From Candidatus Wolfebacteria bacterium RIFOXYD12_FULL_48_21 (GTDB lineage Bacteria; Patescibacteriota; Minisyncoccia; UBA6257; UBA9933): 64,000 nucleotides of DNA. Position numbers and translations under genes: made by a program. The stretch is from assembly GCA_001793945.1 (NCBI GenBank), contig MGIW01000005.1, forward strand, positions 57,923 through 121,922, given 5' to 3'. The notes below the pieces were generated by a model. That model had not been told where the DNA came from, ran no database searches, and worked only from the letters and a program-made list of their open reading frames with translations. This document shows, in pieces, positions 30,102 to 36,416 of this stretch. Position 1 is the first letter of the stretch, and the number at the start of each line of letters is the position of its first letter.

Positions 30102-30845
30102 ATGAAAGTCATTCCAACAATTAACTGCACCGCATTCGCCTGTGTAAAAAAGCGCATAGAAGAAGCGCAAACTTTTTTGCCCAAATCCGCCAGTGGGCGG
30201 AGGTGGCTGCAAATAGATGTGAGTGACGGCAAGTTTAGTGAGTTTGTGTCATCCCCGCCCTCCTCTCTGTCATCCCGGCGAAAGCCGGGATCCACTACTA
30301 ATACCCGCGGAGCGCACGATAGCAGTCCAAAAAGCTGGAACAACCCCGAAAAGCTGGCGGCGTGGCTGAAAGAAAAAAAGATAACCGACATCAATTTTGA
30401 AATACACCTTATGGTAGTAGACCCGAAGCCGTGGGTCATGCGGTGGTTCGAGGCGGGCGCAAAGCGCGTCATCGTGCATGTCGAGGCAATCACCCCGCAG
30501 GACATTCTGTTTTTAAAAGGGTTTGGAAAGGGAAAGGTGGGTATTGCACTGGTTCCGGCAACGCCGCTCAAAAAAGCGGAAAAATATTTGGAGCATTTTC
30601 CATTTGTGCAGCTACTCGCAGTGAAGCCGGGCTATTCGGGACAAAGGTTCGATAGGAAGGTGCTCGAAAAGATCGTGTTTCTGAAAGCGCTCCACCCCGA
30701 TAGTATCGTAGAAATAGACGGGGGAGTGAACGCGACCACCGCACCGGCGATCAAAGACGCGGGCGCCGACATCATCGTTTCCGGTTCGTATATCTTCGAA
30801 GCCAAAGACAAAAAAGCAGCGTACAAGGAATTGAAGAAGATTTAA
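30102..30845 (+). CDS. Ribulose-phosphate 3-epimerase family protein (divergent), carrying an in-frame repeat-element insertion
   Basis: IPTI...IDVSDGKF, HLMVVDP and IDGGVN...SGSYIF align with RPE motifs. The catalytic His in DxxDGHF is replaced by Lys. The segment 30247-30300 is a copy of the palindromic repeat. Confidence 0.5.
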   Translation: MKVIPTINCTAFACVKKRIEEAQTFLPKSASGRRWLQIDVSDGKFSEFVSSPPSSLSSRRKPGSTTNTRGAHDSSPKSWNNPEKLAAWLKEKKITDINFEIHLMVVDPKPWVMRWFEAGAKRVIVHVEAITPQDILFLKGFGKGKVGIALVPATPLKKAEKYLEHFPFVQLLAVKPGYSGQRFDRKVLEKIVFLKALHPDSIVEIDGGVNATTAPAIKDAGADIIVSGSYIFEAKDKKAAYKELKKI

Positions 30846-31073: not shown

Positions 31074-31328
31074 ATGGCAGGTAATAAGATTGATTTTATA
31101 AAACGCTATAAGGAGCTGGTAGAGAAAGTAGAAAAAGGAGAAATAGCTATCGGAGATGCATGTTACGAAATAGGAAGAGGCATGGCGGTAAGGACATTGA
31201 GGATCGATCCGAAACTGGAAGGAATCATGAGAGAAGCTGAGGAGTTTGAGTCGTCTCCCAAAGAAACCCAAGGGAGCAGAGAGGAACGATGGGCTAAGTT
31301 AAAAAACAAGATCGAAAGTTTGCGATAA
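31074..31328 (+). CDS. Hypothetical small protein, translationally coupled to recQ
   Basis: 84-aa ORF. Its stop lies 3 nt before the recQ start. Confidence 0.35.
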   Translation: MAGNKIDFIKRYKELVEKVEKGEIAIGDACYEIGRGMAVRTLRIDPKLEGIMREAEEFESSPKETQGSREERWAKLKNKIESLR

Positions 31329-33123: not shown

Positions 33124-33212
33124 GGAGAGGTCGCATAGAGGCCTAGTGCGGCGGTTTGCTAAACCGCTATGCGGGTTAAACCGCATCGAGGGTTCGAATC
33201 CCTCCCTCTCCG
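33124..33212 (+). tRNA. tRNA-Ser (anticodon GCT), class II with long variable arm
   Basis: Acceptor GGAGAGG. 3-bp D-stem. Loop TTGCTAA. Variable arm TGCGGGTTAAACCGCA. T-arm GAGGGTTCGAATCCCTC. Discriminator G. Confidence 0.85.
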
Positions 33213-33417
33213 CAGAGACAATTTAGTATCGGATAGACCCGAGTGTCTCAAAAAGCATCTAAAGAGTGCAATTGTAGTAACGCTCTTTAAGTATCATGTA
33301 ATGGAATTTATATGAAATAGATAACCGCTTGCAAACCATATATAAGGGCGTACAATAAGTACAAGAGAAGACTTACCGCTAAGCTTTTGGAAATATTAAC
33401 TCTTAAATAGAGATTAT

Positions 33418-33855
33418 ATGCATCTATCAAATAAAAATATAATTATCATGACATTAGTATTGTCAGTTATATTAAATGCCTATCTTTTATTTTTACCAAA
33501 AAAATTGATCGTTACTAAAGAGATTGCATGGTCAACGGATAGTATGAGTGCAAGAGGTTATTTAGAGCCAGTAAATTATGAGGAGCCAAAAGATTGGAAT
33601 ACAATATTTTTTATTGATGCTTTAAATATTGGGGAGAGAGAAAAAGCAAGGTTTTTTGCAAAAGAGATTGTTGTTGCAGGCGGAGTTTTAATCAATCTTA
33701 ATCTTAAAGAATATCCTATAGTAGAAGCTAATGAGGGAAAAATCGTTGCCCAAGATAATACTTATAGGTTTGAGATTACAAAAGATGAAGTGTCTATTAC
33801 AGACAAAGATGGGGAGGTGGCGAGGTTAAGCGATATGTATAAAATTGAATTATAA
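33418..33855 (+). CDS. Hypothetical membrane-anchored protein (AT-rich island gene A)
   Basis: 145-aa ORF with an N-terminal TM helix. GC is markedly lower than the flanks. Confidence 0.35.
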   Translation: MHLSNKNIIIMTLVLSVILNAYLLFLPKKLIVTKEIAWSTDSMSARGYLEPVNYEEPKDWNTIFFIDALNIGEREKARFFAKEIVVAGGVLINLNLKEYPIVEANEGKIVAQDNTYRFEITKDEVSITDKDGEVARLSDMYKIEL

Positions 33856-33961
33856 ATATTGAAAAAATAAAAACTATGTTTTATCGGAATTGTAATACTC
33901 TAAAATAGAAGTTCTTATCCCTTATGGGTATTACTATTAGAAATAACTTTAGAAGTAAAAT

Positions 33962-34270
33962 ATGAAGAATTATTTTGGGAAAAATAGGAAACTGATTTTT
34001 GCAATATTAATCGCTACAGTTCTATGGTCTGTCGGAAATTTTTATTTAAGAAGCAAATTCCATTCTGGCGAATGTGTGCGGGCACTTGATGGATACACTT
34101 GGCATATAAACAATTATAGGTTTGGAAAATATTTTTTGATGGGATGGCAGGGTAATGCATGGGGCAATGAAGTGAAAATGGACAAAGACATTCTCGAAAG
34201 GGAAGATATTTCCGGAATAATAGCTTATCATCAAGTTGTTTGTCCCGAGTATAATCCAAATAATAATTAA
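33962..34270 (+). CDS. Hypothetical membrane-anchored protein (AT-rich island gene B)
   Basis: 102-aa ORF with an N-terminal TM helix. Confidence 0.3.
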   Translation: MKNYFGKNRKLIFAILIATVLWSVGNFYLRSKFHSGECVRALDGYTWHINNYRFGKYFLMGWQGNAWGNEVKMDKDILEREDISGIIAYHQVVCPEYNPNNN

Positions 34271-34373
34271 AGATAGTATTTAATTATGTGAACGGGAAAA
34301 AATAAAATTATGGAAATCATCTTTGCGATAATAGTTGGCTGGTATATTTCTGAAAAATTGATTAATAAATGAA

Positions 34374-35012
34374 GTGAATATAAAAGACATAAAAAAATCT
34401 ATTTACCAAAAAAGAGCAGAAGATCCTGCGGTGTGGGCTCTCGCTGGTTTTAGAAATGAAGAAATAGGTAAGTTTTTCCTAAGAAAATATCGCTCATACT
34501 ATTGGCGATTAGAACAAGAACACTTAGAATTGGCATCGGGGGATCTTCTAAAGAAGAAAAGGAGATTCAATCACCGAGATGGGGATTTACATCGATATGT
34601 ACTGATGTTTTTCGGCTATGCTATCGAAAATTATCTTAAAGGCATTTTAATTAAAAGAGGCTGTAGTCCTATAGAGACTGATGCTAAAAGTAAGCTTCGC
34701 TTGGTTGCGTCCATATCAAATCACAAGCTCGTAGATTATTTTAATAATGTTTTCAGTACTACGCCGGATAAAATAGTGGAAGAAGCACTTAAAAATTTGC
34801 AGAGAGCTATTGAGTCTGGCAAATACGGAGTACCAAAATACGAAGATCAATATTATTCTTTTACCGCAAACTTTGATCAGACAATCATTATTGCAAAAGG
34901 ATTAATAAAGAAAATTAAAAAAATATTAAGCCCCAACCCAACCACCCCAAATCCACCACCGCTAAAACCTCAAAAAATCCTTATACTGATTGCAGGTTTG
35001 GGGGTACTATAA
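34374..35012 (+). CDS. Hypothetical protein with a C-terminal Pro-rich linker and TM anchor (island gene C); GTG start
   Basis: Contains RDGDLH (an Rx4H, HEPN-like spacing; speculative). Ends PNPTTPNPPPLKPQKILILIAGLGVL. The start codon sits 1 nt after the stop of a 20-aa TM mini-ORF at 34310-34372. Confidence 0.3.
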   Translation: MNIKDIKKSIYQKRAEDPAVWALAGFRNEEIGKFFLRKYRSYYWRLEQEHLELASGDLLKKKRRFNHRDGDLHRYVLMFFGYAIENYLKGILIKRGCSPIETDAKSKLRLVASISNHKLVDYFNNVFSTTPDKIVEEALKNLQRAIESGKYGVPKYEDQYYSFTANFDQTIIIAKGLIKKIKKILSPNPTTPNPPPLKPQKILILIAGLGVL

Positions 35013-35033
35013 AAGAATCCGAATACTAATCAA

Positions 35034-35120
35034 ATGGAAAAAGATTTCAACAGGTGGAATGAACACAAGAAGCGAGTAGAGGGCGTAGATCAGAAATTTC
35101 TTTTTAAACAAGGAGAGTGA
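35034..35120 (+). pseudogene. Truncated paralogous fragment of the N-terminus of the downstream MazF/PemK-like gene
   Basis: MEKDFNRWNEHKKRVEGVDQKFLFKQGE* parallels MLKDFFKWHSEKEKIHNRESGVYFYERE at 35349 and ends at an in-frame stop. Confidence 0.45.
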
Positions 35121-35348
35121 AAGAAAAACTCGAGACATTGCTCGAGCTTTTCCTAAAATTATCACCAGAGCCGAAGCTCTGGATCGGTGGGTTCCCCCAA
35201 AAGTAATTTAAGTGTAGGCCGTGCTCAGAATAAAGTCAAAACAAAATATCTACATACGAAATATCCGCTTCACACATAGTGAATATATGGCAATATATTT
35301 TTTAAAATTTGTACTGGATTAGTTGGCCATGCTATCATTGTTTCAAAT

Positions 35349-35732
35349 ATGTTGAAAGACTTTTTCAAATGGCATAGCGAGAAAGAGAAAATACACAATA
35401 GAGAAAGCGGTGTATATTTTTATGAACGAGAGATTTGGTGGGCTAGTCTGGGTTTGAATATTGGATACGAAGAAGACGGTAAAAATGAAAAGTTCGAAAG
35501 ACCGATTTTGGTTTTAAAAAAATTCAATAAGTATATTTTATGGGCATTGCCGTTAACAAGCAAAAATAAGGAAAGTAAATATTACTACCCATTCGAATTT
35601 AAAGGAGAAAAATATTCGGTCATTTTATCTCAGCTAAGAATTATCAGTAGCAAGAGGTTATTAAGGAAATTAGGCCAGATGCCCGAAGATGATTTCTCTA
35701 AAATTAGAGAGTCAATAAGAAAGCTTGTATAA
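35349..35732 (+). CDS. Type II toxin-antitoxin system PemK/MazF-family endoribonuclease toxin homolog (orphan)
   Basis: Matches the EndoA/MazF pattern GVYFYEREIWWASLG...ERPILVLKKFN...ALPLTSK...SVILSQLRIISSKRL. No MazE/PemI-sized ORF immediately upstream. Confidence 0.6.
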   Translation: MLKDFFKWHSEKEKIHNRESGVYFYEREIWWASLGLNIGYEEDGKNEKFERPILVLKKFNKYILWALPLTSKNKESKYYYPFEFKGEKYSVILSQLRIISSKRLLRKLGQMPEDDFSKIRESIRKLV

Positions 35733-36101
35733 AACGAAACCCCTTCTTGCGAAGGGGTTTCTCGGAGGCCGAAGCCCATTTATAAAGATATTGTAACAAG
35801 TAGGCAGTCAAAGTCAATAGCTCAAAAATAAAGGGAATAATATATATTATGCGAGCGAGCATCGAAATACAAAAGGAGATATAAACAAAAGAGCCGCGAA
35901 GCGCGACCCTTTTTAATGACATTATTAGTATAGCAATAAGCCGACTAAAGTCAAGAAAAGAAAGTGCTTAACCATAAACTCTGGCCCGTGTCGCATAATT
36001 ACTTAAGGGGTCGGGTACCTTCATCCCAAACTCTCAGACGAGAACAAAAAAATGCGGAAAGCTCGAAGCTTTCCGCATTTGCGAAAGGGGTTGCCGCGCG
36101 G

Positions 36102-36416
36102 TTACGCGGCAGGGCGGTAGCGGAGAACCGTGGGGCTTACCCGCACCGCCGTTTTGATTTTGTGGGGTACGCACCGAACGCCCGTGCGCCTTGAGGGATG
36201 CCAATCCCGCTGGCTCAAGGGGATCATGTTCGGCCCGGCAGGGTCGGCGACCAGCTCAATGGGGACATACCCCTTTTGGGCGGGGTCCCGAAGCGGGTCG
36301 GGGGCGAAGCCGTCATCGAATTCCATGCCGAACAGTTCGTCGGCCCGCATCTCGCCACCCGTCAGTGCCGCACAGGGGCACTTCTGGTCTTTACCGCAAT
36401 AAAGTACTTTCGCCAT
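36102..36416 (-). CDS. Hypothetical protein in the GC-rich block
   Basis: Strong SD (aaggagg) 6 nt before the ATG. About 62% GC. Terminator hairpin downstream at about 36043-36075. Confidence 0.35.
   Translation of the reverse strand: MAKVLYCGKDQKCPCAALTGGEMRADELFGMEFDDGFAPDPLRDPAQKGYVPIELVADPAGPNMIPLSQRDWHPSRRTGVRCVPHKIKTAVRVSPTVLRYRPAA

Follow-up and report, generated by a model that had tools for sequence, protein, structure and literature searches.

A PemK/MazF-fold toxin gene of Patescibacteria and its convergent small RNA, a probable toxin/RNA-antitoxin module

In a 64-kb stretch of the genome of Candidatus Wolfebacteria bacterium RIFOXYD12_FULL_48_21 (hereafter the window; coordinates refer to it unless a locus number or accession precedes them), a gene for a toxin of the PemK/MazF fold lies on the plus strand. 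A first-pass annotation of this DNA had described the gene as an orphan toxin with an N-terminal extension, preceded by a 28-codon open reading frame (ORF) taken to be a fragment of the toxin's own 5' end. Both ORFs lie where that annotation had placed them, but the toxin is probably not an orphan: a conserved convergent gene for a small RNA (sRNA; 35730–35817, minus strand), which had been overlooked, ends on its stop codon. The features of this pair are the following.

35349–35732, plus strand: toxin gene, encoding a 127-aa PemK/MazF-fold protein and ending in TAA at 35730–35732 (Pfam, structure model with Foldseek, profile alignment to the Protein Data Bank (PDB), invariant columns)
Toxin residues 1 to about 26, plus strand: family-specific N-terminal extension with a predicted helix at residues 5–18
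35730–35783, minus strand: sRNA gene of about 54–55 nt, its 3' end overlapping the toxin stop codon; putative RNA antitoxin
35783 to 35730, minus strand: sRNA layout, 5'-AUAAAUGG-(hairpin 2, UUCG loop)-CUCCGAGA-(hairpin 1/terminator, GCAA loop)-CGUUUUA-3'
35766–35777, minus strand: sRNA hairpin 2, GGGC-UUCG-GCCU (fold, covariation)
35736–35761, minus strand: sRNA hairpin 1, with a stem of 11 bp, a GCAA loop and CGUUUUA after it; intrinsic terminator (terminator scan, fold, covariation)
35790–35817, minus strand: sRNA promoter, –35 TTGACT (35817–35812), 16-nt spacer, –10 TACAAT (35795–35790); promoter scan 10/12

The toxin matched Pfam PemK_toxin (PF02452) over residues 27–126 (E = 6.2e-12, 46.1 bits against a cut-off of 23.1) and the PHROG family 'MazF-like growth inhibitor' over residues 4–125 (E = 1.3e-16). 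When its AlphaFold2 model (mean pLDDT 77) was compared with the PDB by Foldseek, MazF made up 50 of the top 50 matches, with probability 1.0 and TM scores of 0.56–0.74. In the PDB profile alignment, positions 32–128 of the family profile align to residues 8–109 of Bacillus subtilis EndoA, with R51-P52 of the toxin opposite R25-P26 of B. subtilis MazF and T70 opposite T48. R25 and T48 are residues which we take, from the 4MDX work, to belong to the active site, and both R51 and T70 are invariant among 28 family members. Thus the MazF/PemK fold proposed by the first-pass annotation is borne out by the Pfam match, the model and the profile alignment, and the toxin is, by sequence and model, a catalytically plausible endoribonuclease of this fold, with putative RNase activity and toxicity. 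The ToxN/AbiQ-type family was not matched by the toxin in searches with the Pfam, NCBIfam and PADLOC profiles, and NCBIfam and PADLOC gave no matches above chance level for the toxin or its three upstream neighbors.

Because the profile alignment to EndoA begins only at position 32, the first 25–30 or so residues of the toxin have no counterpart in the solved MazF structures. Within this region, F5, W8, K12 and F24 are invariant in an alignment of 18 sequences. The exact protein is on record from Candidatus Wolfebacteria. Homologs of the toxin numbered 907, and among the 120 best of them, on which coverage was judged, nearly all span at least 93% of the query including its N-terminus (most of them 97–100%) and are mostly 126–144 aa long. 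The invariant residues and this near-full-length coverage make the extension a family trait; it is present, as had been noted, but it is no local oddity. The mark of the subfamily is a conserved 'KDFxxW...K' stretch, aromatic and basic, predicted to form a helix. In a scan of one genome per species, at least 556 loci held a relative of the toxin, and almost all of the 80 best, which were examined in detail, belong to Patescibacteria; these and further loci carry L numbers below, L001 being the window's own. An N-terminal F-D-x-W-N-x-x-K-K motif is also found in relatives on plasmids of Campylobacter, Helicobacter and Nitratiruptor and in Campylobacter CJIE4 prophages. Phage carriage was considered and rejected, as IMG/VR yielded a single relative and the named phage matches were the Campylobacter prophages and one Latilactobacillus phage. 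We found no description of the Patescibacteria module in the literature. In several loci the toxin gene occurs more than once: L047:22-3867 is a tandem array of four toxin copies and an internal fragment (residues 14–45), L033 and L053 each have two toxins in tandem, and in L023:3007-5094 two toxin copies are each followed by an sRNA of their own.

No protein antitoxin accompanies the toxin. Next to the gene in the window there is no MazE/PemI-type antitoxin, whether ORFs are begun at ATG, GTG or TTG, and none of the ORFs of at least 20 aa with these starts, on both strands of 35007–35398 and 35633–35922, matched a Pfam antitoxin; this part of the first-pass annotation holds even with alternative starts allowed. 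Across the 80 loci, 515 ORFs of at least 40 aa lie within 400 nt of a toxin gene, and every family among them occurs in four loci or fewer, so that a protein partner is not conserved. The upstream regions are unrelated from locus to locus, and the toxin often begins a few bases past some unrelated gene. An adjacent, co-transcribed gene for a protein antitoxin, the criterion for a type II system, was therefore found neither in the window nor as a recurrent neighbor family in the 80 loci. At many loci (e.g., L027, L029, L031, L044, L059 and L060) a –10-like box precedes the toxin ATG by just 3–10 nt and a Shine-Dalgarno sequence cannot be made out; many of these toxin mRNAs may accordingly be leaderless. 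The window has a weak promoter match, TTGTAC-18-TATCAT (35309–35351), before the ATG.

What does recur is an element on the opposite strand just past the toxin stop codon. Its consensus reads TTGAC[A/T]-16/17 nt-TATACT-about 6 nt-ACAAAUGG-hairpin-CUCCGAGA-hairpin-CGUUUUUU(A), where the last run of U is complementary to the TAAAAAA of the toxin gene and the conserved unpaired segments are ACAAAU and CCGA. Alignment of the raw sequences by MAFFT and RNAalifold recovered only 5 pairs, since the hairpin lengths vary, and the covariance model R1 was therefore built from 26 copies with a structure specified by hand. In the 64-kb window R1 has a single match (35728–35785, minus strand; 66.1 bits, E = 1.3e-10), for which the predicted RNA start is A 35783 and the minimum free energy of the fold is –24.9 kcal/mol (z –4.4). 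Hairpin 1 is followed by a U-tract on the minus strand only, with none after it on the plus strand. As no plus-strand terminator comes before the RNA gene, the toxin transcript would read through it. No family of Rfam 15 matched the sRNA, either in the window copy and that of L019 (E ≤ 10) or in 20 homologous loci at the gathering score.

In the window and the 80 loci together, R1 gave 64 matches at E ≤ 1; each of the 64 runs opposite to the toxin gene, and almost every one adjoins the toxin stop codon. R1 alone identified the sRNA in 61 of the protein-seeded loci, a heuristic for the promoter and 5' box raised this to 71 of 80, and inspection by eye to about 78 of 80; an intact toxin stands without an adjacent RNA in at most two of the 80. 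The two hairpins are supported by covariation over 63 sequences: helix 1 of R1 (hairpin 2 of the sRNA) is paired in 80.7%, with double changes at 3 of its 4 pairs, and helix 2 (hairpin 1) in 86.8%, with double changes at 9 of 10. Taken together, 85% of cells are paired against 43–67% when the partners are slid, and double-change cells number 159 against 17–47, a value reached by none of 500 shuffles. Exactly two hairpins were folded in 61 of the 64 copies. UUCG or GNRA tetraloops close 58 of 131 hairpins on the RNA strand and 0 of 130 on its complement, and in about 50 of 63 homologous matches the RNA is preceded, at a constant distance, by a TTGAC[A/T]-16/17-TATACT promoter. The tetraloop asymmetry, the promoter at fixed distance and the minus-only U-tract identify the strand opposite the toxin as the RNA strand. 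The same fixed-distance promoter and U-tract, with the strand-specific loops, led us to reject a reading of the element as an integron attC or other recombination site. Conservation extends beyond the helices, in that the unpaired positions A5-G10, C22-G26, C50 and G51 are 87–100% conserved whereas the toxins of the examined loci share 45–68% protein identity.

The linkage was also recovered starting from the RNA. A scan of metagenome contigs with the 21-22-nt motif AAATGGN{0,1}CTTCGGSCTCCGAGA yielded 77 loci, in 66 of which a toxin gene is convergent and adjacent to the RNA, at a median distance of 33 nt; one locus is cut by a contig end. The other 10 loci have no intact toxin, and several of them (L091/L121/L134, L149) keep C-terminal scraps of one beside an intact RNA. 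This asymmetric decay, in which the RNA outlives the toxin and hardly ever the reverse, is what a toxin-antitoxin pair predicts.

Several variants of the layout were seen. In about 8 of the 80 loci (L012, L014, L026, L047, L055, L058, L061 and L071) the usual TAA is missing from the toxin ORF, which continues for 7–20 codons through the complement of the sRNA, ending in the case of L026 in a conserved CATTTGTAA; such read-through could be relevant to an antisense mechanism. In L077:3384-3540, from a metagenome-assembled genome labeled Rickettsia, two consecutive sRNA-like units, each with ...CCAATTTGT... and a hairpin, follow one toxin gene, and the toxins of L052, L070, L074 and L078 are followed by a variant related to these. 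L004, L013, L022 and L062 have an extra bidirectional terminator (A-run, hairpin, U-run) between the toxin stop and the terminator hairpin of the sRNA. The sole gathering-score Rfam match in the 20 loci searched, a DUF3800-IX RNA at L040:877-946 (minus strand, 43.2 bits), is about 2 kb away from the toxin and unrelated to it.

A relative of the toxin in a cultivable species has a convergent sRNA beside it. On plasmid pVir of Campylobacter jejuni 81-176, the homolog CJJ81176_pVir0047 (NC_008770 30634–31038, plus strand) shares 34% identity with the window's toxin and has the N-terminal FDxWNxxKK motif, and no protein antitoxin is annotated beside it. Between pVir0047 and pVir0048 lies the 77-nt sRNA CJpv3 (minus strand, start 31119, end 31043), reported as 'detected on Northern blot' (Dugar et al. 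2013, PMC3656092, Table S12); in the table of transcription start sites its start at 31119 has a value of 16164, against 28 for the toxin start at 30608 (Table S5 of the same paper). The Northern probe falls within the convergent element next to pVir0047, and CJpv3 ends 5 nt past the pVir0047 stop codon, with its hairpins abutting the stop, as do hairpins at the Helicobacter and Nitratiruptor homologs. An abundant convergent sRNA beside the toxin stop codon is thus real in C. jejuni. The two pairs agree in toxin subfamily and in the convergent sRNA that ends beside the stop codon; they differ in that CJpv3 has 77 nt, three hairpins and another sequence, and sits on a plasmid in Campylobacterota, while the window's pair is chromosomal in Patescibacteria. 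R1, run with its filters off, gave no significant match at the downstream elements of Campylobacterota.

An RNA antitoxin of a type I system, CjrA, has been reported from C. jejuni 81-176 in PMC10470494 and PMC7826846, both of which cite Shen et al. 2016; the latter places it on pVir, and CjrA is described as antisense. That the pair CjpT/CjrA (Shen et al. 2016, Mol Microbiol 101:909) is pVir0047/CJpv3 is a guess of ours, though one we think likely. An alternative candidate for CjrA/CjpT is the unannotated gap of pVir that contains Cjpv2, another Northern-validated sRNA (start 25268, plus strand; PMC3656092): this gap (L160:929-1404, NC_008770 25228–25703) has small hydrophobic ORFs of 35, 41 and 58 aa on its minus strand and looks like a classical type I pair.

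Upstream and downstream of the toxin-sRNA pair, the window holds further traces of such elements, as follows.

35034–35120, plus strand: toxin remnant, corresponding to codons 1–28 of a family member, with TGA where the family has an invariant WW (family profile hidden Markov model (HMM), alignment)
35121–35239, minus strand: 'unit A', an sRNA-like unit behind the remnant, with promoter TTGACT-17-TACACT (35239–35211) and three hairpins (promoter and terminator scans, fold)
35199–35188, 35182–35165 and 35154–35121, minus strand: the unit A hairpins, the second with a UUCG loop, the third a terminator abutting the remnant stop
35887–35954, minus strand: 'unit C', promoter-like TTGACT-16-TATACT (35954–35927), then one hairpin (35913–35887) flanked by A- and U-runs (bidirectional terminator)

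A family-HMM search of the complete six-frame translation of the window (2185 segments) gave E = 8e-66 for the toxin, E = 0.0067 for the 28-codon ORF and E = 2.8 for the next best segment; the ORF matched HMM positions 2–30, in the same register and with the same start as the toxin. The homology that the first-pass annotation had seen is also supported at the nucleotide level, where 42 of 84 nt are identical in codon register to the 5' end of the neighboring toxin (codon-shuffle p = 0.0015). Its description as a fragment of that toxin's own 5' end did not hold, since 52 of 84 nt are identical to the toxin of L020, from an unrelated genome; the ORF is therefore an old or separately acquired paralog and no recent copy. 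Behind it, unit A (–35.6 kcal/mol, z –4.7) has the layout of the sRNA gene, yet the family's conserved unpaired motifs are missing. Unit A and the tail of the L020 RNA have 9 nt in common, AAUUUUAGG, too weak a match to be used. Unit C (–15.8 kcal/mol, z –4.65) holds the first terminator-like hairpin with a U-run on the plus strand downstream of the toxin. By BLASTN both units were found in the same organism only, and neither matched R1 with filters off, for which reason both were rejected as members of the sRNA family. The best reading of the 28-codon ORF, among those the first-pass annotation had listed, is a decayed second toxin copy, and together with unit A it is best read as what decay has left of a second, divergent module. 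In such a module the toxin body would have been deleted while the RNA unit survived, the order of loss expected of a toxin-antitoxin pair. A third module may have unit C as its final vestige.

These elements lie in an AT-rich islet (33250–35960; 30–37% GC, about 32%, against about 50% around it) that starts about 40 nt past a tRNA-Ser(gct) gene (33124–33213) and contains, besides the toxin, the toxin remnant and the RNA units, three ORFs that match no family. The islet has no integrase, and an att-like integration boundary was rejected, as no direct repeat of at least 9 nt joins the 3' end of the tRNA-Ser to the far islet border. A match to the Rfam family 'Plastid-psbl-rps4' at 33159–33212 (minus strand; 57.9 bits, threshold 68) is an artifact of the reverse strand of the tRNA-Ser. 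One of the ORFs (34374–35012, plus strand) encodes 212 aa and stops 21 nt short of the toxin remnant; its similarity to HEPN is weak and below threshold (E = 0.0033; 18 bits, cut-off 22), NCBIfam, PADLOC and PHROG gave no match for it, and its C-terminus is proline-rich and then hydrophobic (…PNPTTPNPPPLKPQKILILIAGLGVL).

On the whole of this evidence we consider it fairly probable that the locus is a two-gene toxin/RNA-antitoxin module, and, to about the same degree, we infer that the convergent RNA is the antitoxin. A strong sigma-70-type promoter of its own would drive convergent transcription of the RNA, which would terminate on the toxin stop codon and keep the toxin harmless. Some points weigh against this reading or against one of its forms. 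In the Patescibacteria family, toxicity and its neutralization by the RNA are putative; the link to CJpv3 is made by toxin homology and layout, not by RNA sequence; units A and C have no match to R1, and what marks unit A as part of a second module is its layout. A form resembling type III has against it that the RNA is not tandemly repeated and that the arrangement is typical of type I, while a form resembling type I has against it the lack of cognate-specific pairing, the tetraloops and the conserved primary sequence.

The module does not fall neatly into a described type. With type II MazEF/PemIK systems (B. subtilis EndoA-EndoAI, PDB 4ME7 and 4MDX) it shares the fold of the toxin and, probably, the catalytic Arg and Thr, and genes of the family are annotated in databases as 'type II PemK/MazF family toxin'; unlike those systems it has no MazE/PemI gene, carries an extra conserved N-terminal helix and has an RNA as its conserved partner. 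Type III systems (ToxIN, CptIN, TenpIN) consist of an endoribonuclease toxin, of a fold related to Kid/MazF, that is neutralized by a structured non-coding RNA made in excess. The window likewise combines an RNase-fold toxin with a structured RNA, whose conserved unpaired segments could occupy the active site, but the type III antitoxin is a set of tandem repeats upstream on the same strand, whereas the RNA in the window is single-copy, downstream and convergent. No tandem direct RNA repeats were found at the locus, 33200–36200 holding only two AT-rich micro-arrays elsewhere. Among type I systems, convergent antitoxin RNAs that overlap the toxin 3' end are known from txpA/RatA, bsrG/SR4 and par RNAI/RNAII of pAD1, and enzymes as toxins from SymE/SymR and RalR/RalA. 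With txpA/RatA, bsrG/SR4 and par the module has in common a convergent sRNA with its own promoter at or over the toxin 3' end and the sharing of a terminator; it departs from type I in its soluble 127-aa RNase-fold toxin, where a small hydrophobic membrane peptide is typical though not universal, in the deep conservation of the RNA primary sequence, and in the lack of pairing with the 5' region. The Rfam pemK RNA motif, RF02913, is, as here, a structured RNA associated with pemK, from which it takes its name; it matched neither the window (E ≤ 10) nor the best-scoring copy, nor any of 20 homologous loci (gathering score), and the script of a preprint treats it as a cis-regulatory element.

As to how the RNA would act, direct sequence-specific recognition by the toxin, with the RNA as a pseudo-substrate or sequestering ligand in the manner of type III, is our tentative preference. 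Several observations favor it: the unpaired bases are deeply conserved, which a cis-antisense RNA would not need; the hairpins are rigid tetraloop scaffolds, which are poor starters of antisense pairing; the family-specific N-terminal helix is aromatic and basic; and pairing with the toxin 5' region was not found. An enzyme as toxin would, moreover, call for an inhibitor of the protein. UACAU is the reported cleavage site of the B. subtilis and Staphylococcus aureus MazF, and the conserved 5' UACAAAU of the sRNA resembles it, which we take as just a lead. Under direct neutralization, the unpaired UACAAAU and CCGA would be pseudo-substrates and the N-terminal helix an RNA-docking adaptor; type III-like logic would thus have arisen independently around a 'type II' toxin. 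That such modules form a large, unrecognized class widespread in Patescibacteria, in which a MazF/PemK RNase is neutralized directly by a single-copy, convergent, tetraloop-scaffolded sRNA, is a more speculative proposal, and one we would not yet bet on.

Cis-antisense pairing of the RNA with the 3' untranslated region (3' UTR) and stop region of the toxin mRNA, followed by RNA decay as in type I, is the less likely mode but a possible one, and the two modes are compatible with each other. Trans pairing with the toxin 5' region gave no signal: interaction energies with the translation-initiation region were –23.8 kcal/mol for cognate and –23.3 kcal/mol for non-cognate combinations (38 cognate pairs, p = 0.36) and the C. 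jejuni sRNA showed no cognate-specific pairing with its toxin 5' region either (p = 0.29).

Of the rival explanations, the one that survives best, although we think it unlikely, is that the sRNA acts purely as a cis-antisense RNA to the 3' UTR and stop region, through RNase III or exonuclease decay or a block of translation termination, and never touches the protein. The layout suits this well, being convergent and 3'-abutting like that of txpA/RatA, bsrG/SR4 and par RNAI/RNAII; since hairpin 1 terminates the minus strand only, the plus transcript should carry the full complement of the RNA, and in four loci the extra bidirectional terminator described above is shared. In C. jejuni, CJpv3 greatly exceeds the transcript of the toxin in abundance (PMC3656092), and CjrA is described as an antisense, type I antitoxin. 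Pure antisense action would leave without a purpose the 87–100% conservation of unpaired nucleotides over deep divergence, and it sits poorly with the UUCG and GNRA caps and with the finding that pairing does not extend to the translation-initiation region; control of synthesis only would also give no safeguard against leakage of an enzyme toxin.

A second alternative, which we regard as improbable, is that the sRNA is real but no antitoxin: it could regulate other targets, serve the RNase as substrate or cofactor, or travel with the gene to insulate transcription, with the toxin solitary or held in check by its N-terminal helix or a distant factor. A CUCC-type motif in the linker could indeed pair with the Shine-Dalgarno sequences of other mRNAs, and orphan copies of the RNA exist; these orphans stand beside toxin scraps, which indicates loss of the toxin and not independent spread of the RNA. 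An RNA with unrelated functions would hardly show a linkage that is near-obligate both ways (71–78 of 80 and 66 of 77), a fixed position relative to the toxin stop codon, and an intact toxin that almost never occurs without it. Least of all do we credit a protein or peptide in the partner's place, be it the 28-codon ORF as a leader or regulatory peptide (a use the first-pass annotation had suggested) or as a surrogate antitoxin, or a hidden antitoxin nearby with an unusual start: the ORF runs unbroken from its ATG to a stop codon and lies on the toxin's strand, 229 nt upstream of the gene, but it stops exactly where the invariant core of the family begins, a second, N-terminal-only match upstream of the toxin occurs in L001 alone among the 80 loci (the L047 fragment, residues 14–45, is placed differently), BLASTN finds the ORF at full length only in L087 and L120, with the same sequence, small ORFs on both strands match no antitoxin family, and no protein family recurs beside the toxin.

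The sRNA partner makes the supposed 'orphan type II toxin' part of a probable RNA-antitoxin module, with what is left of a second module lying upstream. Surveys of toxin-antitoxin systems would count these 'type II PemK/MazF' genes as orphan toxins, and their partner is an unannotated RNA, absent from Rfam, that is found in 71–78 of the 80 examined loci and at the 66 RNA-seeded loci with an adjacent toxin. The pair is compact, a 127-aa protein and a 54-nt RNA, and it adds a sizable RNA family to the candidate phyla radiation, from which, to our knowledge, almost no regulatory RNAs have been described. It also ties a family of uncultured lineages to the tractable pVir plasmid of C. jejuni, where an RNA of this kind is already detectable; if the system of Shen et al. 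2016 is pVir0047/CJpv3, the pair in the window would belong, as a distant new member, to a system already defined by experiment. Should the RNA prove to be the antitoxin, systems with protein antitoxins and systems with RNA antitoxins would both occur within the MazF superfamily, which bears on how antitoxin types evolve and are swapped.

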